From a virus (taxonomy: Duplodnaviria; Heunggongvirae; Uroviricota; Caudoviricetes), in IMG/VR virus record IMGVR_UViG_2909309443_000006, positions 1 through 40,283 of that record: a DNA stretch of 40,283 nt. The stretch is one strand, 5' to 3'. How positions within the stretch are numbered: position 1 is the first letter of the stretch; every line of letters begins with the position of its first letter. The notes beneath the pieces are model-generated. The model saw only the letters and a program-made list of their open reading frames with translations, was not told where the DNA came from and did no database searches. This document shows, in pieces, positions 4,512 through 35,759 of the stretch. The position numbers and the translations under genes are program-made.

Positions 4512-7500
4512 TCAGCTAATCGTGATGCCTGTAGTGGCTTTCTTCATCACCACAACCAGCAAATCGCTGATACTTGCTGTGGGATACCAGTTATTTACCA
4601 GCCATGCTGACACCGAAAACTCCAGTGTCATGTGACCGTGACCGGCAGGCATATCAATAACGCCACTGTAAATCAGCGTATTATCCAGCGCGGTACGGTT
4701 ATAAATTTCAGCACCGTTTTTCCGCACTATCAGACGGCATGAGGAGTAAATATCAGTATGCTCTCTCTCATGCTTAGCGCCACTGAATGCCACCGCCGGA
4801 ATAACAATTTGCCGGTCAAACGGCTGATCGTCATAAACCCTGACGGTAATGGTCCCTGATGGCCACCGCTCCGGTGCACGGGAGTCCCGGGGGAAAGCTT
4901 TGCCCACTGTTTTAACGAGATCGCCTTCAATCTGGTTCGCGGACAGTTTTCCCAGAACCCGGCAGTTCTCGTTAATCGTGACGTTGTTGAGCGTCCCGGA
5001 GTTCGCATTCACACTGCCACTGATATCCGCATTTTTAGCGGTCAGCTTTCCGTCCGGTGTCAGGGAAAATGCCGGAGGATTACCGCCGCTGGTAATGGTG
5101 GGAGCCGTCAGATATTTCAGGAACACTTCGTTCATGAATATCTGATCGCCCTGACCAACAAACATCGGCTTTGTGTTGCCATTCGCAGGATTAATCATCG
5201 CAATCCTGTCTGCCGCCAGCAGCACCTGACTCTGCATGCCTGCTGGCGTATTCTCAATACCGGCACCGATACCCGCGATATAAAGGCGTCCGTCCTGCAT
5301 CTGCTGCAGCTTCACAGCCCACATGCTGTTCAGGTTATTATTTGTATCAACCTGAACCTTCTGTATCTGCTGGATCGCTGCACTCTGGTCTTCCAGTTTC
5401 TTATTGACGGTCTGTGTGATTTCATTGCTGACATCCGTAATGGATGTCCTGATTTCAGCCAGGTCAGGCGCAAGCTGACCGTTATCAATCTGCGTCCACA
5501 GCTCCTGAGCCAGATGGGTTTTCCCTATCTCGCCTTTGAAAAAATCCAGATAGCCGGATGCGTCATCACTCGGCTGACCAACAGCCTCCACGAATGCCGA
5601 TTTGCCAACGGTGTTCACACTGCGAACGTAAAAATAATAATTATGGCCCGGCCTGATATTGATACTGGCGGCTATCCAGTACAGCGCCGTGCCAAGATAG
5701 CGTGCTGTGGTTTCAACCTGCCTGATATCCGCAATCCGCTTTTCCGAGAACCAGAACTCAAACTGTACCGTCGGATCATAAACCGCAAGATGCGGCGTGG
5801 CGGTTATCTGAAAATAGCCCGGCGTCAGCTTAATCCGCGACGGTGCTGCCGGTGCGGCAATCCGGAACGATACCGATGCCGGATCGCCCTGCTGTCCCCA
5901 CGCATTTACCGCCCGGACTGTCAGCCTGTAATTTCCCAGCGCCAGTTGCGTGAAGCGGTATGTGGTTTCCGTCGTCCTGGCTGTGCTGACCAGCCGCTCA
6001 CTGCCGTCATCCGCTGTCACGGTCAGACGGAGCAGGAAACTCACGCCCTTCACCACCTTCGGCGTGTCCCAGCGGGCCAGTACCTGATACTCCCCGCTGT
6101 CTGCGGTGACTTCGGCAGTCAGGTGCTGCACTGCTGGCGGCGTGACACCATTCACCGTGCCGCTCTGGTCGCCGTCAAAGTGCGCCCCGTTATCCACGAT
6201 GGCTTCTTTTTCCGGTACATGCTGCACGGCGGTGATGGCATACGTGCCGTCGTCGTTCTCACGGATACTCACGCAGCGGAACAGGCGCTGGCGCAGCGTC
6301 GGCAGCTTCAGCCCCCATACGCTGTATCCGGCAACGCCGTCAGGAACACGGCTCACTTTTACCTTCACTCCGTCGGTGACGGACTGGACCTCCACGCTGA
6401 CCGGATTGCCACTTCCGTCAACCAGGCTTATCAGCGTGGTACCGGAGGATGGCAGCGTGATTTCACGGTCGAGCGTCAGCGTCCGGGTCTGGCTGTTCAC
6501 CGCCAGCACGCGCCCGCCGGTGCTGATCCCCGCATAGTCATCATCGCAGATTTCAATGACATCGCCCGGCACATGGAGAAGCCCTTCCGCACCCACGCTG
6601 AAGTCCACGGTCTGCGTTTCCAGTAGTTCCGTTTTAATCAGCCACAGCCCGGCGCGGTGCGCCTGCCCCCGGCTGGTACAGCCAAAAGCATCCATCTTCG
6701 TGACGTTACGACCGTAACGGGCAATGGCCTGCGTGTCCTCCACAAGCTCTGTCGCCGTCTCCCAGCCGTTATTCGGGTCAATCCAGTTCACCTCAACGGC
6801 ATTATGGCGGTCCTTCAGGGCGCTGAAGCTGTAGCGGAACGGCGCACCATCATCCGGCATCACCACATTACTGCGGTTATAGGTCCACACCTTATCCGAC
6901 GGTCGGTCCTGCACGAACGTCAGCGTCTGCCCGTTCCATACCGGCATACAGCGCATCGCCGAGCAGAAATCACTGAGAACATCCCACGCCTTGCGCTGTG
7001 TGGTCAGCCAGGCATTACAGGTGATGCGCGGCTCCGTGCCACCAAAGCCATCCGGCACCGACTGGTCGCAATTCTGGCCGATGACATACAGCGCCCATTT
7101 GTCCACATCCGCCGCACCGAGACGCTTCCCCATGCCGTAGCGCGGATGGGTCAGCATATCCCACAGACACCAGGCCATGTTGTTGCTGTATGCCGGTTTA
7201 AACGTTCCGTCCCAGATACCGCTGTATTGCCGCGTCTGCGGGTTATAATTCGACGGCACCTGCAGAATACGCCCGCGCAGATGATAATTACGGCTCACCT
7301 GCTGGCTGCCGAACTGCTCCGAGTCCACCTGCACGCCGACCAGTGCCGTGTTCGGGTAGCACTGTTTCACATCGATGATTTCGGTGTATGACGACCAGAG
7401 CGTTTTGTTCTGCAGCTGGTCTGTGGTGCTGTCCGGCGTCATCCTGCGCATCCGGATACTGAACGGGCGCGGCGGCAGGTTATCCACCACCACCGAGGCC

Positions 7501-9338: not shown

Positions 9339-10037
9339 TTACTGCGAAAGTTTGTTAATGGAAAGGAAGCCGCCAAAGTTGCCGACGTTATTGCGAAACT
9401 TACAACCACTCAGGCATTTGCTGCATTTATCCTTCGTGATATCGGACGTCGGCTGGTCATATTCATCAGCGACAGCCGGACCGTGATAACCGCACTCATC
9501 GCCGCGATAGGTCCAGGTGCAGGTGTTGGCCAGCATGATGCGCCCCGGAAAAACAGCACCATCCGTTTCCGTCGGTGTGGAGAGCACAAAGGAGGCACTG
9601 ACCGCACTCAGTTCGCTACACTGCTCGATGCGCCAGCGGCTGATCACCTCCTGCTCCGGATCGGCGTCGCTGTTTCCGTTGACGAAGTTCACCGCATCCA
9701 GAAAGCGGGCGTAAACCTTACGCCTGACCACCGTTCCGCCGACCAGACTCTGCAGGTCTTCCGCCATCCCGGTGACCATGCCGTGCAGGTTAGAGACCGT
9801 CAGTGTCGGACGGGCAGCACTGCCCTTACCGTTCAGTTCAAATCCCGTCCCCTGAATGGGGTATGCCTGATACTGCCGCCCCTGCCAGGTGACCGGCTCA
9901 CCTTTTTCGTTCTGCTCATTACAGAAAAAATAACGTTCACCACCGACCTCTGTCAGATCGATTTCCCAGAGCACCACTTGGGCTGACTGAGTAAGGCGTG
10001 TCGTCTCATGATGTGTTTCCTGTGGAATATCCTGCAT
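9339..10037 (-). CDS. L: Minor tail protein L
   Basis: 232 aa lambda L-like ORF with C-terminal Cys cluster; synteny M-L-K-I-J. Confidence 0.9.
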   Translation of the reverse strand: MQDIPQETHHETTRLTQSAQVVLWEIDLTEVGGERYFFCNEQNEKGEPVTWQGRQYQAYPIQGTGFELNGKGSAARPTLTVSNLHGMVTGMAEDLQSLVGGTVVRRKVYARFLDAVNFVNGNSDADPEQEVISRWRIEQCSELSAVSASFVLSTPTETDGAVFPGRIMLANTCTWTYRGDECGYHGPAVADEYDQPTSDITKDKCSKCLSGCKFRNNVGNFGGFLSINKLSQ

Positions 10038-10046
10038 CAGGGCCTC

Positions 10047-10376
10047 CTATGCCACGACCTGTTCAAAATCTGCCGTTATGGTTACCCACAGCGCCCCCAC
10101 GCTTGCCGACCATTTACGACAAACCACCGTGATCGGCTTCCAGTCATAAGGTGGCGTCCACTGAAATGCGCGGACGCCACCGTGCCGTTCCAGAAAGGCT
10201 TTCAAAGATGGGTGTTCACATTTACGAACACGTATCGTCACGCTGTAAGTCGACAACTGGTTATTCAGTCCCGCCGCACGACGCTGTTCATAACCATCGC
10301 CCAGCTTCACTGTCACCACTTTCGGCTCTGATACCACATTCATATCCGGGCGCACTTTCCAGTGAAACGTCTCCAT
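10047..10376 (-). CDS. M: Minor tail protein M
   Basis: 109 aa lambda M-like ORF; start overlaps the tape-measure stop. Confidence 0.9.
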   Translation of the reverse strand: METFHWKVRPDMNVVSEPKVVTVKLGDGYEQRRAAGLNNQLSTYSVTIRVRKCEHPSLKAFLERHGGVRAFQWTPPYDWKPITVVCRKWSASVGALWVTITADFEQVVA

Positions 10377-12820
10377 TACCGATATGCTCCACTTAACCGA
10401 CCACCATCACGGGCCTGCTGTTGCATAAAGTCCGCTGCTGCTTTTTTCCCGAGGTCATAAACCACCTTCAGGGCAGCCGGACCTATCTGCCCGTTCGTAC
10501 CATCGTTATTGATCTCGATGTTGTACTGCGGGGCAAACATCACCATACCTGAACCACCAATATCCGCCACAACACCCAGCTTGCCATCAGCACCACGACG
10601 CAATGGCAGAATGGCTTCAGACCCCGCTTCTCCCATCACACCCGCGCCTTTTGCAAAAGCAAAAAACGTCGGACGGTTAACCACCGTGCCACTGTAGCGA
10701 CTCAAATCAGCAGACTGATAAACACCGCCATCCGCATTTGGCGTCACACTGGCAGCTGCTGCACTCCCCCAGCCAAACGCCGAACCAATCCCCTTCACCG
10801 CCTGCATCATGGCCATCTGCGACATGATTTTTGCCAGATCAGAAAGGAGCGAGGCGGTAAAAGATTTGAAGTTCAGTTTTCCGGTGGTGCAGAACGTCGC
10901 CAGTGCATTACCTGCGCTGTTAAATGCCGCTGTAAACATCTGCTCAGCGGTACCTGCCGCGTTATCCGCACTCTCTGTAAAATTCTGAAACGCCCGCATG
11001 GCACCGTTTTTCCAGTCTGCCTGCATCAGTTCCTGCTCCTGCCAGTAATGTCTGTTTTCGTTCAGTTGCCGGTTAAGACTGTCTGTCAGCATCTGCTCAG
11101 CATCCCGGTATTCATCTGAGCCGTATGTTCCTTTCTGTTTACTGTCACGCTCCAGTTGCTCCATTTGCTGCTGATATTTCTGTTGCAGACTGAACTGTGT
11201 CTGGTACCGCTGACGCTGTTTATCCCCCATCCCTGTTGTGGCGATATCCAGGTCATGTTGCTGACGCAGAGCCCGTTCCTCTTCCGCCAGCTGGCTGGCA
11301 AGCTGAATGGATTTTTTCTTCAGGTCATTCAGCGCCGTCTGCTTCTGCAGCTCCTGCTGTTTTGTATCCAGCAGCGTCAGTGCCTGAATCAACTCATCCT
11401 TATGCGCCAGCACGCTTTTTTCATCTGCTGTCAGCTTTTTACCCGCCAGATCACTGATACGCTGCTGCAGGGCCAGAAGCTGCTTATGCGCCTCTGTCAT
11501 TTTTTCCGTGGTCAGTCCCGCGGACTGTCTGGCGGCGGCAATCTGCCCCTCCACCTGCGCCTGCTGCTGACTGTACTGCAACAGCAACCGGGTGGCTTCA
11601 TCATTGCGGTTTTCAGATGTTTTTTTCTTAATGGCTTTTTTGTAACGTTCATTTTCACGCTGTATCGCTGCGTCCCTGACCGCCTGGTCGGCATACTGCA
11701 TGGCATTGATGCGCGCAATTTCACGTTGATGTCGCGCCGCCTCCGTTTCATTCATCCGGTTCAGCGCAGCATTTTCAGCATTCCGGCGTTTCTGCTGTTC
11801 CTGATAATTTCGTTCAGCCTGCGCTTTTGCATCCTGTAAATCTTTCTGGCGCTTTTTCTCCTGAAGTTCATCAAGGCGCTGCTGGTCGTATTCCACTGTG
11901 GTGGATGCATTTGTCCAGGGCGATTTTTTCGCACGCTGAATTTTTTCCTGCAGCGCCGCAATCTGCGCATCAAGGGAATCATTACGCCCGATATTCATGG
12001 CGGCATCCCAGAACTGCTTCCACCAGTCAGATAAGGTTTGCAGCGTACTGCCCAGCGCATTGAGATTATTATCAATATCAGATGTGCGTTTACCGGTTTC
12101 CTCTGCCAGCGCTGACATGGCGATCCGGGCAGCATCACTGGCACGCCCCTGTTCCCCGAGAACACGGACTTGTTCAAGCTGGGTGGCAGTCAGGAAATGC
12201 AGTTCATTATCCAGCGTCCTGGCTGCATTTACCGGATCATCCTTCAGTCGCTTAAACTGACTTATGGTGTCGCTGACAGACTGCCCCACTGAACGTTCCA
12301 TTTGCGCGGCAGCTTTCGCCACCATGGCGATATCACCTCCACGAAATGCACCACTCCCCACCACCTGAGCCAGCGCACCGGCTGCAGCATGTTGCGTGAT
12401 ACCATTCCCGGAAATAGCACGACTGAGCACCCACAGCTGCCCGGCAGTGACTCCGGCATAATGCCCCGTCAGCGACAGCTGGCGGTTAAATTCTTCCCCC
12501 TCCTTCTGACCGTCATACCAGGCTTTACCCAGACCATAGACGGCCGCGGCAATACCGCCAATAACCCCGCCAAGCATCATGCCTTTCGGTGACATCAGTG
12601 TGTCTATCCATCCGGCACGGTTAGCCAGCGTTATCCCGGATCCCCTCAGCGCCCCTAAATTGCCGCGGGCCAGTTCACCTATCAGAACGCCTATCTCCTG
12701 GCGGGCTGCTGCACTTTTCAGACCCAGCGAATGCGTGGCTTTTCCTGCCCGCTCCATTTTGCGGATATACACTTCTGCAGCACCGCTTACCCCCAGCTGG
12801 GCTGCCCTGGCGCGAAGCAA
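10376..12820 (-). CDS. H: Tail tape measure protein H, apparently 5'-truncated (no ATG or SD at ORF start)
   Basis: C-terminus INNDGTNGQIGPAALKVVYDLGKK...RDGGRLSGAYR matches lambda H; coiled-coil Q/E/R-rich middle; ORF opens with TTG about 48 residues into the lambda H alignment, with an in-frame stop 13 codons upstream. Confidence 0.8.
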   Translation of the reverse strand: MLRARAAQLGVSGAAEVYIRKMERAGKATHSLGLKSAAARQEIGVLIGELARGNLGALRGSGITLANRAGWIDTLMSPKGMMLGGVIGGIAAAVYGLGKAWYDGQKEGEEFNRQLSLTGHYAGVTAGQLWVLSRAISGNGITQHAAAGALAQVVGSGAFRGGDIAMVAKAAAQMERSVGQSVSDTISQFKRLKDDPVNAARTLDNELHFLTATQLEQVRVLGEQGRASDAARIAMSALAEETGKRTSDIDNNLNALGSTLQTLSDWWKQFWDAAMNIGRNDSLDAQIAALQEKIQRAKKSPWTNASTTVEYDQQRLDELQEKKRQKDLQDAKAQAERNYQEQQKRRNAENAALNRMNETEAARHQREIARINAMQYADQAVRDAAIQRENERYKKAIKKKTSENRNDEATRLLLQYSQQQAQVEGQIAAARQSAGLTTEKMTEAHKQLLALQQRISDLAGKKLTADEKSVLAHKDELIQALTLLDTKQQELQKQTALNDLKKKSIQLASQLAEEERALRQQHDLDIATTGMGDKQRQRYQTQFSLQQKYQQQMEQLERDSKQKGTYGSDEYRDAEQMLTDSLNRQLNENRHYWQEQELMQADWKNGAMRAFQNFTESADNAAGTAEQMFTAAFNSAGNALATFCTTGKLNFKSFTASLLSDLAKIMSQMAMMQAVKGIGSAFGWGSAAAASVTPNADGGVYQSADLSRYSGTVVNRPTFFAFAKGAGVMGEAGSEAILPLRRGADGKLGVVADIGGSGMVMFAPQYNIEINNDGTNGQIGPAALKVVYDLGKKAAADFMQQQARDGGRLSGAYR

Positions 12821-21501: not shown

Positions 21502-21576
<75 letters not shown>

Positions 21577-21579
21577 ATA

Positions 21580-21655
<76 letters not shown>

Positions 21656-21657
21656 AC

Positions 21658-21734
21658 TGGCCCGCCACCGAGGACTCGAACCTCGCACACTCAACTTAAA
21701 GGGTTGACGCTCTTTCCTGATGAACTGGTGACGG
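21658..21734 (-). tRNA. tRNA-like gene with non-canonical anticodon loop (CCUUUAA, C at position 33); possibly degenerate tRNA-Lys
   Basis: 77 nt cloverleaf foldable (acceptor with one G-U, T-stem CGAGG/CCUCG, T-loop UUCGAGU, CCA encoded) but position 8 is C and U33 is replaced by C. Confidence 0.45.
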
Positions 21735-21735
21735 T

Positions 21736-21811
21736 TGGTGGCCCTTGCTGGATTTGAACCAGCGACCTGGCGATTATGAGTCGCTCGCTCTCACCACTGA
21801 GCTAAAGGGCC
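21736..21811 (-). tRNA. tRNA with CAU anticodon, ileX/ileZ-like (tRNA-Ile2; Met not excluded)
   Basis: 76 nt; GGCCCUUUAGCUCAGUGGUGAGAGC...CUCAUAA...GGUUCAAAUCC...CCA; resembles E. coli ileX as remembered. Confidence 0.8.
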
Positions 21812-21860: not shown

Positions 21861-22910
21861 TCAAACGATTAAATCCTGAACTTCCCTGACTGTCTGTTCA
21901 AAACGTCCTGTCTCCAGCTCAACACCAATCGCACAACGCCCCAGTGCCATCGCCGCTTTTACCGTTGAACCTGAACCCATAAAAAAATCTGCAACCAGGT
22001 CTCCCGGACGACTGCTCGCGTTGATTATCTGCTGCAGCATTTCTGCCGGTTTTTCGCACGGATGTTTCCCTGGATAGTACTGCACCGGTTTATGCGTCCA
22101 GACATCGGTGTACGGAACCTGCGCCGTCACACCGAAATACCGCCGCAAATTTTTATATTCACTCAGCAATTCCGTATACTGCCGGTTCAGCTCACTGTAT
22201 GTGCTGACCAGCTGGTGGTGTGGTTTTTCCAGTTCCCCGCGCTGATGTTTTTCTGCCGCAACACGCGCAAACAACGCCTGCAATTTGTTGTAATCACCCT
22301 CGTTCGGTAACTGCCACTGACTGGTACCAAACCAGTGCGAAGCCATGTTTTTCTTTCCGGTGGCTTCCGCTATCTGTTTTGACGTTATTCCCAGTGATTT
22401 ACGCGCATCACGAAAGTAAGAAATCAGCGGGGCCATGACGTGCTGTTTTAGCTCGCGCCCCTGTGCCACATAGCCATCATCTTTCGGGCGATACGGTCCC
22501 TGATAATGTTCTGCAAACAGAATGCGCTCTGTTGCCGGAAAATACGCCCGCAGACTTTCCTTATTGCACCCGTTCCAGCGTCCGGACGGCTTCGCCCAGA
22601 TAATGTGGTTCAGCACATTAAAGCGCTCACGCATCATGATTTCGGTGTCAGATGCCAGGCGATGACCACAGAACAGGTAAAGACTTCCGGCAGGCTTCAG
22701 TACCCGCCAGAACTGCGCCAGACACTGGTCCAGCCATTTCAGGTAATCATCGTCGCCCTCCCACTGGTTATCCCAGCCCTCGGGCTTCACTTTAAAGTAT
22801 GGCGGGTCTGTGACTATCAGATCGACAGAGTTTTCCGGTAAGGTCTGGATAAATTTCAGGCAATCAGCGTTGATTAACTCACAACTGGATATTTTTACAG
22901 TATTAGTCAT
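21861..22910 (-). CDS. Orphan DNA methyltransferase (beta-class N6A/N4C amino-MTase)
   Basis: 349 aa; DPPY motif (LIVTDPPYF) near N-terminus and AdoMet-binding FMGSGST near C-terminus; no adjacent restriction gene. Confidence 0.8.
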   Translation of the reverse strand: MTNTVKISSCELINADCLKFIQTLPENSVDLIVTDPPYFKVKPEGWDNQWEGDDDYLKWLDQCLAQFWRVLKPAGSLYLFCGHRLASDTEIMMRERFNVLNHIIWAKPSGRWNGCNKESLRAYFPATERILFAEHYQGPYRPKDDGYVAQGRELKQHVMAPLISYFRDARKSLGITSKQIAEATGKKNMASHWFGTSQWQLPNEGDYNKLQALFARVAAEKHQRGELEKPHHQLVSTYSELNRQYTELLSEYKNLRRYFGVTAQVPYTDVWTHKPVQYYPGKHPCEKPAEMLQQIINASSRPGDLVADFFMGSGSTVKAAMALGRCAIGVELETGRFEQTVREVQDLIV

Positions 22911-23060: not shown

Positions 23061-23258
23061 TCACTGCAGAAGGCGTCTGTAACAACCGAACTGATAATCT
23101 GCCAGACCCGCCATAACAAGCTGGGTCAGGATTAACTGGCAGCGTTCGCGTGAAAGGTAAGTATTCTGCGCAATTTCCCCGACGGTCGCCGGTTCGGTGA
23201 CGCTTAATTCATTAAACACCACTCTGGCGGTTTCGGTCATATCCTGCTGTTTTAGCAT
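23061..23258 (-). CDS. Small putative DNA-binding (winged-helix-like) protein
   Basis: 65 aa from ATG at 23258; segment TVGEIAQNTYLSRERCQLILTQLVMAGL looks HTH-like; start uncertain (ORF track extends to a GTG at 23345). Confidence 0.4.
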   Translation of the reverse strand: MLKQQDMTETARVVFNELSVTEPATVGEIAQNTYLSRERCQLILTQLVMAGLADYQFGCYRRLLQ

Positions 23259-23477
23259 GTCTTTTTCCCTTTTCTGGTTAACGTGACATACCAATAACTC
23301 TTGTCTAAAAAGCCAGCAAGCTGAAAGACCGGTATTCGCAACCACCAGCGCGTTTAACGTACTGCATCAATTTTCGAGCATAAAAAGACCGCCTGAGGGC
23401 AGCCTTTTTACATTAAAATTAAGTTTTCTTTAACTATGTTGTATGTGAAATTAGCATTCCCTACTGAGTTTATACAA

Positions 23478-24221
23478 CTAATCTGACGTCACACGCACCA
23501 TTATACTTACTAAAGAAAAGTCATCATCAGGTCCGGCTCTCTCTATACGACGCAAAATGCCATTAGAAAACTTCTGACTATTACTCATCGTATTTGATGT
23601 AAATCTGGGGCGTTTTTCCCAAACGTTATGAACCCCATCAGACATGATACACAGATGATATACCCCGTTAATACTAGGTAAATCTTTCCATGTGATAAAA
23701 TCACAGTCGTATTCCATATCAACATTTGAGGCTATAGCCGTCGTTAAGATATTTTTGCCCGGTTTATCCTTCAAATCTCTGGGTTTAAAAATATTCTGAT
23801 CAATTAGCATCTGATGCCTGGTATCGTCCTTCGTCAATTGGTATGCTTTCTTCTCTCCAATGCAATACAAACGACAATCACCAATATGACCAATAATAAT
23901 TCCGCTATCACAAACATAACAAAACGTAAGTGTAGTAGCAGCTTTATCGAACTCATCATTAACATCAGCTAACGACATAACCTTTCGCTTAACTTCATCA
24001 AATACATCCGGAACTGTGTCAAAAGATAAGCTTGTCAATGCTGAAAGTTCAGCAATTGCCATTGATGAAGCCTGACTGGCACCAGTGTATGAACCTACAC
24101 CATCAGCTACGGCAAATAAGATGCCATCCCCTACAATTTTGGGAGGAAGCAATGAATCTTCGTTGACCCTACCTGGTTCTTTTGGATACGAGAATGATGA
24201 AGTCGCTATCAGCTGAATCAT
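23478..24221 (-). CDS. PP2C-family (PPM) Ser/Thr protein phosphatase
   Basis: 247 aa; motifs NEDS, FAVADGVGS, GHIGDCR, MSDGV, acidic C-terminal DDDFSLVSIM; AAGGAG SD; start ATG overlaps kinase stop (ATGA at 24218-24221). Confidence 0.8.
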   Translation of the reverse strand: MIQLIATSSFSYPKEPGRVNEDSLLPPKIVGDGILFAVADGVGSYTGASQASSMAIAELSALTSLSFDTVPDVFDEVKRKVMSLADVNDEFDKAATTLTFCYVCDSGIIIGHIGDCRLYCIGEKKAYQLTKDDTRHQMLIDQNIFKPRDLKDKPGKNILTTAIASNVDMEYDCDFITWKDLPSINGVYHLCIMSDGVHNVWEKRPRFTSNTMSNSQKFSNGILRRIERAGPDDDFSLVSIMVRVTSD

Positions 24222-24982
24222 GACTCACTCCTTAAAAAAGAATGCACAAAATCAAACGCCACATCATCTATTGTCTGATATCTATCATCTTTATCCATCC
24301 TGGTACACTTCGCTATGATAGGCTTTATTTTTTTATCATCTAAATTTAAGTCCTCAATTAACCGCCCCACCGCATAAACATCAGTCTTAACTGAATACTC
24401 GGCATTATATAAAATCTCGGGAGCCATATATCTTGTACTTCCCATACGGGTACCGATCTCGGTCAATTTAGTGGTATCCCCTTCGGGATTTGTATCTTTT
24501 ACCAGACCAAAATCAGACACCTTGTATGTTCCGTCGCTAAATCGCAAGACATTAAATGGTTTTATATCTCTGTGTAAATAGCCTTTCGCATGGATGTGAG
24601 CTACACCATCTAATACCATTTTCACTATTGAAATTTTTTGATCTGTTGTAAGAAGGTTGTTCGTTATTTCGTGCTCAAGATCACATTCTGCTTTATCCAT
24701 AATGAACCATGGATTCTCGGCAAACAAATCGCACAAATAAATAGGAACAATATTGCTATGTACGCAATGTGATTGATACACGACCTCCCTTTTAAAACGC
24801 CTTCTAAACTGCTCTATTTGCGCCAAAAGCTCTGGTTTTTCGGGGGCTAAAACCTTTCTAGCATAATCCCCACATTCACCCTTGTTGAGGTTGTAAACCT
24901 TAACGTGTTCAACAAAGCCAAATGCACCCCTTCCAATCAACTGAATTCGTTTTATAAAGTAATTACCGTGCTGTTCTTCCAT
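24218..24982 (-). CDS. Hanks-type (eukaryotic-like) Ser/Thr protein kinase
   Basis: 254 aa from ATG at 24982; Gly-loop GRGAFGFV, Lys in YARKVL, catalytic loop HRDIKPFN, DFG (VSDFGL), APE (YMAPE). Confidence 0.85.
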   Translation of the reverse strand: MEEQHGNYFIKRIQLIGRGAFGFVEHVKVYNLNKGECGDYARKVLAPEKPELLAQIEQFRRRFKREVVYQSHCVHSNIVPIYLCDLFAENPWFIMDKAECDLEHEITNNLLTTDQKISIVKMVLDGVAHIHAKGYLHRDIKPFNVLRFSDGTYKVSDFGLVKDTNPEGDTTKLTEIGTRMGSTRYMAPEILYNAEYSVKTDVYAVGRLIEDLNLDDKKIKPIIAKCTRMDKDDRYQTIDDVAFDFVHSFLRSES

Positions 24983-25054
24983 TAAGCTCACCGACCTAAA
25001 TTGTAAGAATATCCATATCTTACAACTACAGATAAAAAGGTCCACAGAGTTAAG

Positions 25055-25078
25055 CAAAAAACCCGCATTTAAGCGGGT
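25055..25078 (-). terminator. Intrinsic terminator immediately downstream of the Q-like gene (tR'-like)
   Basis: Hairpin ACCCGC-ATTTAA-GCGGGT followed by T6 on the minus strand, about 50 nt after the Q-like stop. Confidence 0.55.
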
Positions 25079-25114
25079 TTACACACTATACGGCAAAATA
25101 TCACATTTACATAA

Positions 25115-25143
25115 AATGTATGCGATTTAATTGACTTTTGCAA
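25115..25143 (-). promoter_or_regulatory. Candidate PR'-like late promoter overlapping the 3' end of the Q-like gene
   Basis: Minus strand TTGCAA - 17 nt - TACATT, about 25-40 nt upstream of the terminator hairpin. Confidence 0.3.
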
Positions 25144-25822
25144 TATCTCGTCGTGAAAAGGTCGCTTTTTGTTGCGATCTCATTTTCACGGTGCAAATCA
25201 AGGATTCTGTATCGAGTTTCTTAAAAATGTCGCACATCTCACGCCAGTAGTTCGCATAATTATGGCTCCAGTTGTCAGGCTTAACTCCACACAGTCTGGC
25301 AAGTTCCTGTCGCTGGTAGACGTCACGCCCAGTAATCCTCCCCCTGACATCCTGCGCCGCCAGCCAGATTAATTTCTTCAGACGCTCAAGCGTTTTCCCT
25401 GTAATTTTTCTGGTGCCAAAATGCACCTGAAACTTATCCCACGCCCATTTCGCAATGACCACCTGATAATCCCAACTCGGATTTTCACTGTATACCCACA
25501 GCACCCACGCCTTCTGATGCTCTTCAAGAGACAGAACGGCGCGTCGCCATGATGATGTCGAAAACTCAACCGGACTGACCAGGGCAATTGATGAACCTTT
25601 CGCCAGCGATTGCTTTCCCGGGATTGGTGGATTATCCCGCGTTATCATTTTTCCAGTCACTTCATCGCGGTACCGGATTTTTTTTCGCCTGTAACGCCCT
25701 GTATCGAACATGGCATTCTCCTGCCAGGCTTCAAGCTGCCCTTTTGTTGATCCACTCAAATCGGCGGTGGCAATCATGAGTTGCTCACGAACAAACTGTA
25801 AATACTGGTTATTCATGCGCAC
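25127..25822 (-). CDS. Putative late-gene antiterminator (Q-like), assigned mainly by position
   Basis: 231 aa ORF directly after rusA and directly before a promoter-like element plus terminator; no motif recognised. Confidence 0.45.
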   Translation of the reverse strand: MRMNNQYLQFVREQLMIATADLSGSTKGQLEAWQENAMFDTGRYRRKKIRYRDEVTGKMITRDNPPIPGKQSLAKGSSIALVSPVEFSTSSWRRAVLSLEEHQKAWVLWVYSENPSWDYQVVIAKWAWDKFQVHFGTRKITGKTLERLKKLIWLAAQDVRGRITGRDVYQRQELARLCGVKPDNWSHNYANYWREMCDIFKKLDTESLICTVKMRSQQKATFSRRDIAKVN

Positions 25823-27623: not shown

Positions 27624-28109
27624 TTAGTTTTGCTGTTCTATTTTAAGCTTGATAGTTTCATACAAAACAATAGTTGCGCCTGTTTTACATAATTCCCGGC
27701 TGTCATACGCGCGAGACCAATAACACAACCAGTTCTCGAGATCTTCTCGAGTATAGGTTTTGCAGGCCAGTCCCTCTGCCATTTCCACGATTTCATCGCC
27801 TGGTGCTGTTAACTCATAGCCATTCAACAACAAGAAGACGTAACCAGCCATCATAGCTGTTCGTTTGTTCGCATTAGCAAACGGATGATTCTGAATCAGA
27901 CTTTCAATCAATACCGATGCCAGTACAAACATGTCATTAGTCTGTTCATACCATCGAACCATGCTGGGACGGGCCTGAGAAGAACTTAAGTTATCTGGAC
28001 TCAGAACACCAACGGGCTCATCTGGCGTCTGTAATTCAATTAGGGAACGATTGATTTCAACAAGATCATCAACCGTAAGGTAATGCACTCCTTCAACAAT
28101 CTCAGCCAT
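27624..28109 (-). CDS. Fic/Doc-family protein (Doc-like toxin)
   Basis: 161 aa from ATG at 28109; motif HPFANANKRTA fits the Doc signature H-x-F-x-(D/N)-(A/G)-N-K-R. Confidence 0.7.
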   Translation of the reverse strand: MAEIVEGVHYLTVDDLVEINRSLIELQTPDEPVGVLSPDNLSSSQARPSMVRWYEQTNDMFVLASVLIESLIQNHPFANANKRTAMMAGYVFLLLNGYELTAPGDEIVEMAEGLACKTYTREDLENWLCYWSRAYDSRELCKTGATIVLYETIKLKIEQQN

Positions 28110-28127
28110 AGAGCACAATACCCATCA

Positions 28128-28522: not shown

Positions 28523-28678
28523 TTACTCCTCAGGTTCGTAAGCTGTGAAGACAGCGACCTCCGTCTGGCCGGTTCGGATTCGTACCTCGCAGAGGTCTTT
28601 CCTCGTTACCAGTGCCGTCACTATGACGGTTAAACAGATGACGATAAGGGCGATTAACATCGCCTTTTGCTGCTTCAT
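28523..28678 (-). CDS. hok: Hok/Gef family type I toxin (HokD/RelF-like)
   Basis: 51 aa MKQQKAMLIALIVICLTVIVTALVTRKDLCEVRIRTGQTEVAVFTAYEPEE; AAGGAG SD. Confidence 0.85.
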   Translation of the reverse strand: MKQQKAMLIALIVICLTVIVTALVTRKDLCEVRIRTGQTEVAVFTAYEPEE

Positions 28679-28735
28679 AGCCTGCTTCTCCTTGCCTTTC
28701 GGCACGTAAGAGGCTAACCTACATTTGTGAGACAT
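28523..28735 (-). CDS. mok: Mok (overlapping reading frame that couples hok translation)
   Basis: 70 aa ORF from ATG at 28735 in frame with and containing hok, as in hok/sok loci. Confidence 0.5.
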   Translation of the reverse strand: MSHKCRLASYVPKGKEKQAMKQQKAMLIALIVICLTVIVTALVTRKDLCEVRIRTGQTEVAVFTAYEPEE

Positions 28736-28969
28736 AGATTGAGCCTCAGATTAATGTTAAGCGTCTTGCAGGACGCGTAATGTTAACTGGGGCTTTTCTC
28801 TATCTGCCTTTTGGTGTTCATGCCTGAGGCAGATAGCCTCAAGCACCCGCAGCAATTCTACTTAACTCCCCTTTCACTGCAAACCGTTTTTATCCCCAGC
28901 GGCAAATCGAATACACAACAAGTGCTGCCGCCATTGCAATTCCTGTCGTTGTGAATGCCTCCGGCCAGG

Positions 28970-35700: not shown

Positions 35701-35759
35701 TTTTCTGGTGGCGTTTGGCGGTATCAGTTTTACTCCGTGACTGCTCTGCCGTCCTTTTT
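35701..35759 (+). ncRNA. dicF: DicF-like small RNA (antisense regulator of ftsZ in Qin-type prophages)
   Basis: uuucuggugg cguuuggcgg uaucaguuuu acuccgugac ugcucugccg uccuuuuu, ending in a U-run, about 160 nt upstream of dicB; matches K-12 DicF as remembered. Confidence 0.65.

Follow-up and report, generated by a model that had tools for sequence, protein, structure and literature searches.

The element described here is a kinase-phosphatase gene pair on the minus strand of IMG/VR record IMGVR_UViG_2909309443_000006, a Caudoviricetes sequence of 40,283 nucleotides that was analyzed over its whole length and is referred to below as the window. The pair consists of a minimal Hanks-type Ser/Thr protein kinase followed by a minimal PP2C (PPM) Ser/Thr phosphatase, and across related loci the two form one obligate, co-diverging unit. 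Tentatively, it is read as a self-contained mobile phospho-switch cassette in which the kinase may be a toxin and the phosphatase its antidote, perhaps serving in abortive infection or exclusion. The cassette is made up of the following features.

24218-24982, minus strand: kinase gene (Hanks-type Ser/Thr, minimal), 254 amino acids, 765 nucleotides; open reading frame and Pfam Pkinase
23478-24221, minus strand: PP2C (PPM) Ser/Thr phosphatase gene, minimal, 247 amino acids, catalytic domain only; open reading frame and Pfam PP2C_2
24218-24221, minus strand: ATGA overlap of the kinase stop and the PP2C start; the plus strand reads tcat
23391-25090, minus strand: inserted cassette, about 1.7 kb; blastn breakpoints against loci L177, L178, and L179

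The kinase is an RD-type enzyme (H137-R138-D139) with the catalytic loop HRDIKPFN, and its translation also contains the motifs GRGAFGFV, YARKVL, DFG, and APE. Its reading frame extends upstream to a TTG at 25057 (24218-25057), while the ATG at 24982 gives a protein that begins MEEQHG, as in the 765-nucleotide RefSeq gene. Pfam Pkinase (PF00069) matches residues 12-212 of 254 at E = 2e-33 (116.4 bits, cutoff 31.7) and is the sole Pfam match across the protein, which is a kinase domain alone. In an alignment of 32 homologs, G17xG19, K43, E66, H137-R138-D139, N144, D157-F158-G159, APE, and R234 are invariant or nearly so, and Thr-174 of the activation loop is nearly invariant. RD kinases are typically switched on via phosphorylation of the activation loop; together with the conservation of Thr-174, this would make the kinase itself the obvious first substrate of its PP2C partner. 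AlphaFold2 models of both proteins were built on family alignments. The kinase model has a mean predicted local distance difference test score (pLDDT) of 89.4, with the activation loop (residues 168-177) as its sole disordered stretch, and matches PknB, Stk1, and eukaryotic kinases in the PDB at template modeling (TM) scores of 0.72-0.80. By its Pfam score, complete motif set, and fold, the protein is a Hanks-type kinase.

The phosphatase carries the motifs FAVADGVGS, GDCR, and SDGV and matches Pfam PP2C_2 (PF13672) at E = 2.1e-14 (54 bits, cutoff 24). Residues D22, D40-G41, G114-D115, D132, S194-D195-G196, and D233-D234 are invariant in 29 homologs, and the AlphaFold2 model (pLDDT 92.5) matches PstP, Stp1, tPphA, and PppA in the PDB at TM scores of 0.75-0.79. 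With PF13672 above its cutoff and the metal-binding Asp residues of motifs 1, 2, 8, and 11 in place, the protein is a PPM/PP2C phosphatase. Kinase and phosphatase both look active because their catalytic residues are invariant across the family. The sequence-only reading of the window had named a 254-residue kinase and a 247-residue PP2C phosphatase from these motifs and had treated them as an enzyme pair; the minus-strand translations, both Pfam profiles, and the two confident predicted folds agree with it, and the conserved catalytic residues suggest that both are working enzymes.

The two genes are kept together with few exceptions. In a kinase-anchored scan of IMG/VR, PP2C is the next same-strand gene after the kinase in 79 of 80 loci, the exception being a contig end. 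The ATGA overlap of the kinase stop and the PP2C start implies translational coupling, which the sequence-only reading had proposed for the window; of the 79 viral loci, 60 have the identical 4-nucleotide overlap, and the others are mostly within a few bases of it. A PP2C-anchored scan of the same collection returned 80 loci, 78 of them with upstream room: a full kinase lies directly upstream in 73, a damaged kinase in 5, and in 0 of the 78 does PP2C stand without any trace of a kinase upstream. Clustering at 90% PP2C identity resolves the viral pair loci into 41 groups. Pairwise kinase and PP2C distances from the same loci are correlated at r = 0.815, a value that none of 2000 Mantel permutations reached, and mean divergence is similar for the two proteins (0.55 for the kinase, 0.53 for PP2C).

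The pair is a horizontally acquired insertion, as indicated by an empty site in related prophages and a GC content of 38%. The E. coli prophages of loci L177 and L179 retain the antitermination gene Q, a small open reading frame, and a methyltransferase gene, with a gap of about 210 nucleotides between Q and the small open reading frame. Homology by blastn breaks at 25091 on the Q side and at 23390-23409 on the other, where that to L177 and L179 resumes, and the segment in between holds a 5' hairpin, a leader, the kinase, and PP2C. Cassette GC is 0.384 against 0.513, and the whole window is at 0.508; by gene it is 0.383 for the kinase, 0.394 for PP2C, 0.48 for Q, and 0.507 for the methyltransferase. 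The proposals that the two genes are AT-richer than their flanks and were acquired horizontally thus stand. The conserved sequence just upstream of the breakpoint contains a possible extended -10 element, TGTGATATT; if real, it would mean that the cassette inserted into the start of the late transcript.

The position after Q is a variable cargo site, since several different proteins occupy it. In ETEC4073, a different protein of 237 residues is found at the same place (L178 1334-2047, minus strand), and Enterobacter phages carry proteins of 178 residues (L172 4259-4795, plus strand) and 221 residues (L173 2332-2997, plus strand) in this slot. The sequence-only reading had equated the site with the one where Shiga toxin (Stx) phages carry stx. 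Stx phages carry stx downstream of the tRNAs and upstream of nanS-p, and in loci L002 and L179 the tRNAs are followed by a SASA esterase. The comparison therefore holds for the Q-to-lysis cargo region as a whole and fails for the insertion point, which in the window lies directly after Q and upstream of the tRNAs.

Damage to the pair is asymmetric and falls on the kinase. In E. coli strain 510016, a 10-nucleotide deletion leaves a 187-residue kinase beside an intact PP2C, and the same event is found in loci L098 and L188. Five complete E. coli genomes, and also L097 and L196, have a frameshift allele that encodes 218 residues of kinase followed by a 103-nucleotide gap and an intact PP2C. The kinase is split in L128, C-terminally truncated in L156, and reduced to its last 83-91 residues in L253/L254 and L256, each time with PP2C intact. 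No locus with an intact kinase and a damaged PP2C was found, and both genes are lost or scrambled in two loci, H116 (IS1 and IS3 insertion) and L159. With 5-6 kinase-only lesions against 0 PP2C-only lesions, the one-sided binomial probability is p = 0.033-0.017. Loss of the kinase alone would be expected if the kinase were harmful without its phosphatase.

Two of these loci have further peculiarities. L256 contains a second, longer kinase-like open reading frame of 338 residues (236-1252), about 2.5 kb upstream of the kinase remnant and its intact PP2C. L159 (1-2534) contains kinase fragments with overlapping profile ranges and a 366-residue PP2C with an internal duplication, indicating rearrangement or misassembly.

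The exact cassette (95.7-100% identity) is present in 50 of 5,426 complete E. coli genomes (about 1%), always on the chromosome. At the inspected E. coli loci (E24377A, ML35, and the short loci of strains 510016, 118UI, and 755), it adjoins Q. Carriers include enterotoxigenic E. coli (ETEC; E24377A and O6:H16), enteroaggregative E. coli (EAEC) 55989, avian pathogenic E. coli (APEC) BEN2908, and urinary isolates. By DNA similarity, the cassette is absent from 50,697 phage records; by protein similarity, homologous pairs occur in two of these, both from temperate, cultured phages of lambdoid layout. In Cronobacter phage phiES15 the order is Q, kinase, PP2C, lysis, and the kinase is 40% and the PP2C 42% identical. 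In Escherichia phage Flotzy the order is lysis, kinase, PP2C, terminase, with identities of 45% and 41%, and the PP2C is annotated as hypothetical. No member of the family was found in virulent phages among the same records. Recurrence in other prophages, which the sequence-only reading had put forward as a check, is thus seen in E. coli, in phiES15 and Flotzy, and at the IMG/VR loci.

Protein searches recovered 285 clusters for the kinase and 210 for PP2C, all of the same length (about 245-260 residues) and often on shared contigs, and all named matches are Gammaproteobacteria. Against 1.84 billion representative sequences, the PP2C profile finds about 20 clusters (50% identity) with scores better than 1e-60, after which the scores fall off distinctly to the level of generic PP2Cs; judged by this gap in profile scores, the phosphatase is a compact family. 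When genome contigs were scanned with the kinase alignment, all that matched were generic kinases, 25-35% identical and from phyla unrelated to the carriers, since the patterns were the universal HRD and DFG motifs; the loci collected in that scan (L005-L083) have no bearing on the family.

Phage contexts were annotated with PHROG for three genes on each side at 40 representative loci, complemented by the called-gene tables of other genomes, and three slots recur. In the first, seen in the window, phiES15, and L099, the pair follows Q and RusA and precedes holin and endolysin. In the second, it separates endolysin or spanin from the small terminase; this slot is used in Flotzy, in two Enterobacter phages whose terminases differ, and in Serratia. 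In the third, it lies directly behind a CI-like repressor and co-oriented with it, with divergent genes opposite, in five clusters (L110, L143, L154, L105, and L126); in none of the five is there a terminator in the gap between repressor and pair.

Outside these slots, the pair is found in a range of mobile or accessory settings. In P. putida, it lies on a transposon- and integrase-rich island, and in Aeromonas and Pseudomonas it forms a solitary two-gene chromosomal islet. In Vibrio vulnificus (L170 9738-16753), it abuts small unannotated genes that include one for a P2_N/P2_C double-jelly-roll capsid protein. The neighboring block appears to be a PM2-like (corticovirus) prophage, and a position at its edge would mean that the cassette is not confined to tailed phages. 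In Xanthomonas arboricola (L171), the pair adjoins a 654-residue NACHT/nSTAND3 protein (9682-11646, minus strand) near a SymE toxin (6148-6501, minus strand), a neighborhood that is defense-island-like. In PADLOC, this NACHT protein has weak P-loop matches only.

Around the pair, the window contains the following features.

25127-25822, minus strand: Q; PF06323, E = 5e-84
25056-25080, minus strand: 5' intrinsic-terminator hairpin between Q and the kinase, AAACCCGC-TTAAAT-GCGGGTTT followed by a T run; terminator scan (25080-25059) and RNA fold
24999-25027, minus strand: leader hairpin with a perfect 10-bp stem and a 9-nucleotide loop; inverted repeat, minimum-free-energy and centroid folds
23378-23411, minus strand: 3' intrinsic-terminator hairpin about 70 nucleotides past the PP2C stop; RNA fold z = -2.8
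23061-23345: small TrmB-like open reading frame
23074-23057, minus strand: third terminator, 3' of the TrmB-like open reading frame
21861-22910: N6/N4 DNA methyltransferase
21502-21811, minus strand: tRNA block, followed by the lysis genes

In the coding direction, the order is Q, terminator, leader, kinase, PP2C, trailer, terminator, TrmB-like open reading frame, terminator, methyltransferase, tRNAs, and lysis, in keeping with the earlier placement of the pair between Q with its terminator and the block of methyltransferase, tRNA, and lysis genes. The 5' hairpin falls inside the segment missing from the empty-site prophages and is part of the insert. The 3' hairpin is homologous to the single post-Q terminator of those prophages and is the resident phage terminator. 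Across the family, a terminator-like hairpin within 130 nucleotides past the PP2C stop is found in 26 of 39 representative loci, compared with 90 of 937 control open reading frames (Fisher p = 1e-16). The leader hairpin lies in the 76-nucleotide leader about 17 nucleotides 5' of the kinase ATG, just upstream of the ribosome-binding site, and could be an operator, an RNA element, or a translational control element. No Rfam family matches inside the cassette. The small TrmB-like open reading frame was considered as a third component and rejected: it adjoins the pair only in close E. coli relatives, is located elsewhere in other phages, and is also present in the empty-site prophages.

The remainder of the window is an apparently complete lambdoid E. 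coli prophage with tail, head, terminase, RusA, DUF968, and replication genes, a YdaT-like protein, and a cI-like repressor with helix-turn-helix and S24 domains. ARAGORN predicts four tRNAs in the tRNA block (Gly-TCC, Lys-TTT twice, and Met-CAT) and Rfam at its gathering score three, the one at 21658-21734 failing. In the annotation of the close relative E24377A, the tRNAs number three and are Gly, Thr, and Ile; near-identical prophages thus differ in this block. A 164-residue Fic/DOC protein is encoded in the nin region (27624-28118, minus strand; Pfam Fic E = 6.9e-12, motif HPFANANKRT). Because Doc-type proteins are kinases of EF-Tu, this one may be a further phosphorylating toxin of the prophage, unrelated to the kinase of the pair; a search of its surroundings gave no obvious antitoxin. 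A sok antitoxin RNA (28673-28848, minus strand; Rfam 121.6 bits) marks a hok/sok type I locus, and hokD is annotated at the matching place in E24377A and ML35. The antisense small RNA DicF (35703-35754, plus strand; Rfam 70.8 bits) occupies the early-left region, an arrangement shared with Qin/Kim-type prophages.

The tentative proposal is that the pair works like a type VII toxin-antitoxin system, as poison and antidote, with the kinase held in check by the phosphatase. The kinase would autophosphorylate and then phosphorylate cell proteins, which would be harmful if unchecked. PP2C, made from the same mRNA by coupled translation, would continuously strip these phosphates and so act as an enzymatic antidote. 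An invading phage would tip the balance, for instance by inhibiting the phosphatase, and the unrestrained kinase would arrest the cell and with it the infection. Obligate pairing, co-divergence, an RD kinase with a near-invariant Thr, and asymmetric decay all fit the idea of a checked kinase. The slots behind cI, the solitary islets, and the NACHT and SymE neighbors fit accessory or defense cargo, and the restriction of the family to temperate phages among the phage records also speaks for this role. Precedent comes from KKP, a system of Pf6 and other prophages composed of the kinases PfkA and PfkB and the PP2C phosphatase PfpC (Guo et al. 2024, PMC11341870), in which the kinases jointly form the toxin and PfpC serves as their antitoxin; PfpC is itself bound and inhibited by T4 Gp59.

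A number of observations weigh against such a role. Neither protein has a sensor domain, and the asymmetry of decay rests on 5-6 events, some of which may be assembly errors. Most phage contexts are late-operon positions, either after Q or between lysis and terminase genes. No sigma-70-like site was detected between the 5' terminator and the kinase ATG, and the family as a whole shows no enrichment of promoter-like sites 5' of its kinase genes (11 of 36 loci, with 8.5 expected from shuffles); the search was a consensus scan, which weak or regulated promoters could escape. With a terminator upstream and no promoter detected, the pair is most plausibly transcribed by read-through of that terminator, through Q antitermination after induction or through leakage. 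Q-dependent late expression is thus favored in the window, which weakens a role in lysogen defense there and keeps alive a role that benefits the phage.

In favor of a defense role, the best PADLOC matches of the kinase are defense kinases (mad6 at 1e-39, PD-T4-6 at 1.1e-34, and Stk2 at 4.8e-28); against it, they cover the generic kinase core alone (e.g., profile positions 11-201 of 327), and PP2C matches no PADLOC model at E < 0.007. With PADLOC models, the defense-system search proposed in the sequence-only reading gives core-level matches for the kinase and no meaningful match for the phosphatase. The alternative slot cargo of 237, 178, and 221 residues has no Pfam or PADLOC match and offers no guilt by association for a defense hotspot. 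Literature searches for the two-gene system, the RefSeq accessions, and phiES15 found no functional study.

A serious rival, though of lower probability, explains the same locus as a late, Q-dependent function that benefits the carrier phage and is transcribed just ahead of its lysis or structural genes. The kinase would then modify host proteins, such as sensors of capsid, portal, or terminase, and PP2C would limit collateral damage or reverse host kinase immunity. In the window the pair is flanked by Q and the resident terminator, with another terminator ahead of it and no promoter detected. This position suits the explanation, as does the prevalence of late-operon contexts (Q-pair-lysis or lysis-pair-terminase), and the T7 kinase is a precedent for a phage kinase with a broad counter-defense function (bioRxiv 10.1101/2024.12.20.629319). 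Late expression would nevertheless come late for counter-defense, a conserved 3' terminator would be irrelevant under antiterminated transcription, and loss of the kinase with retention of PP2C is not predicted. The lack of family members in virulent phages across the 50,697 records, the five clusters behind cI, and the islets and transposon-rich islands that have no phage late operon also speak against it. More doubtful still is the specific form in which the pair is a two-enzyme counter-defense unit of temperate phages and not host immunity, switched on by Q or placed just before the terminase, portal, and capsid genes. Here the kinase would pre-emptively phosphorylate and so blind host sensors of late structural proteins, while PP2C would strip the phosphates placed by host kinase-based abortive infection and spare phage proteins. 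Such a unit would be the first case of a phage-borne phosphatase acting as an anti-immune effector, and a late phage function in general would mean that temperate phages deploy kinase/phosphatase pairs against host immunity.

Two further explanations concern the lysogen and the cassette itself. It is improbable that the pair is a lysogenic-conversion or regulatory module in which phosphorylation of host regulators, such as nucleoid proteins, tunes silencing, induction, or physiology. KKP does phosphorylate the H-NS-family protein MvaU and thereby controls Pf prophage activation (PMC11341870). The cassette, too, is foreign, AT-rich prophage DNA with a link to cI in some relatives, and it is carried by E. 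coli of many pathotypes (ETEC, EAEC 55989, APEC, and urinary isolates). However, no host target can be named, the kinase has neither the CSD nor the FHA domain on which KKP kinases depend, placement in the window argues against steady expression in the lysogen, and no tie to any pathotype or phenotype is apparent. Least probable of all is a purely selfish addiction module that stabilizes the cassette or prophage by post-segregational killing. Toxin-antitoxin modules typically show such close coupling of two genes and such one-sided decay, and the same prophage holds hok/sok and Fic/DOC. Addiction requires an unstable antidote, though, and nothing suggests that PP2C is labile; chromosomal prophages gain little from it; and many toxin-antitoxin modules of this kind turned out to be defense systems (discussion in PMC11341870).

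If the kinase is indeed a toxin and PP2C its antidote, the pair would be a tractable model for infection sensing by an enzymatic antitoxin and for what a promiscuous kinase must strike to stop a cell or a phage. The pairing also matters for annotation, because kinase-only models may label the kinase PD-T4-6 and miss its PP2C partner.

Among known systems, KKP is the closest, with several features in common. Both are prophage-borne in Gram-negative bacteria, both combine Hanks-type kinase activity with a PP2C_2 phosphatase that is proposed as an enzymatic antidote, and a defense role is plausible for both; KKP defends against T4 and T-odd phages (PMC11341870). KKP has two kinases, whereas the pair has one, and its gene order is PP2C, kinase, kinase, in contrast to kinase, PP2C. 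KKP genes are 900-1300 bp long, compared with about 750 bp for each gene of the pair. Its kinases require CSD (PfkA-like) and FHA (PfkB-like) for toxicity, and by Pfam the kinase of the pair has neither. KKP is located mainly in P2/P4, Mu-like, and Pf prophages and the pair in lambdoid slots, though both are borne by temperate phages or mobile elements. Membership in KKP is rejected on gene number, gene order, and CSD/FHA, a separation drawn from the described features of KKP.

The Stk kinase of Stx phage 933W is expressed from the prophage and makes infection by HK97 abortive (Friedman et al. 2011, as cited in PMC3564112), and PMC3564112 describes both lambda rexAB and the 933W kinase as co-transcribed with cI and aborting superinfecting phages. 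The sequence-only reading had invoked Stk as a precedent, and the likeness lies in a eukaryotic-like kinase on a lambdoid prophage and in the five related clusters that share with stk a position behind cI. Stk is encoded by one gene, has no phosphatase partner, and is reported to be a tyrosine kinase, whereas the pair in the window lies after Q and not in the immunity region. Assignment to the Stk type is rejected at 25.7% identity over 68% of the kinase (E = 5e-7) and with no layout for co-transcription with cI in the window.

PD-T4-6 and Stk2 are single, longer proteins, whereas a PP2C partner is obligate here. A generic PknB model matches the kinase at 8e-30, similar to the PD-T4-6 score, which is for the kinase core alone; membership in PD-T4-6 is rejected on the contrast between a single-gene system and an obligate PP2C partner (79 of 80 loci). 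The TerY-P triad, a defense system that contains a kinase/PP2C gene pair, combines the vWA protein TerY with a Ser/Thr/Tyr kinase and a PP2C (PMC4978471, PMC7699616). TerY-P requires the TerY/vWA gene, and none is present beside the pair, whose neighbors are Q and the TrmB-like open reading frame, or among the annotated neighbors of related loci. The sequence-only reading knew of no named system with this architecture; that holds in so far as the pair belongs to neither KKP nor TerY-P, no paper on it was found, and the DefensePredictor paper contains no such two-gene system, although the reading missed these two closest precedents.

The housekeeping pairs PknB/PstP, Stk1/Stp1, PrkC/PrpC, and PpkA/PppA provide the best structural matches, perform the same chemistry, and are encoded by adjacent, often overlapping genes. 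In housekeeping kinase/phosphatase operons the phosphatase usually comes first. Housekeeping kinases belong to the core genome and carry transmembrane and PASTA or other sensor domains, whereas the kinase of the pair has no extra domain. Assignment to the Stk1/Stp1 equivalogs of NCBIfam is rejected, with the kinase scoring 104.4 against a cutoff of 450 and PP2C (Stp1_PP2C) 93.5 against a cutoff of 230.

Lambda rexAB and other morons resemble the cassette in position (behind cI, after Q, or between Rz and terminase), foreign composition, and possession of a 3' terminator of their own, and their proteins are unrelated to the pair. Foreign composition and an empty site are present here; a downstream terminator is found across the family, and in the window it is the resident phage hairpin. 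Morons are by definition also equipped with their own promoter, and the consensus scan detected none for the pair. Phosphorylation-based conflict between phage and host has come into view only lately, through Stk2, 933W Stk, PD-T4-6, KKP, and the T7 kinase. Among these, the present family would be the smallest unit, built from two catalytic domains and nothing else (it lacks a sensor, a scaffold, and a second kinase), and it is a widespread and unusually minimal one, with the two proteins kept inseparable and co-evolving across Gammaproteobacteria.

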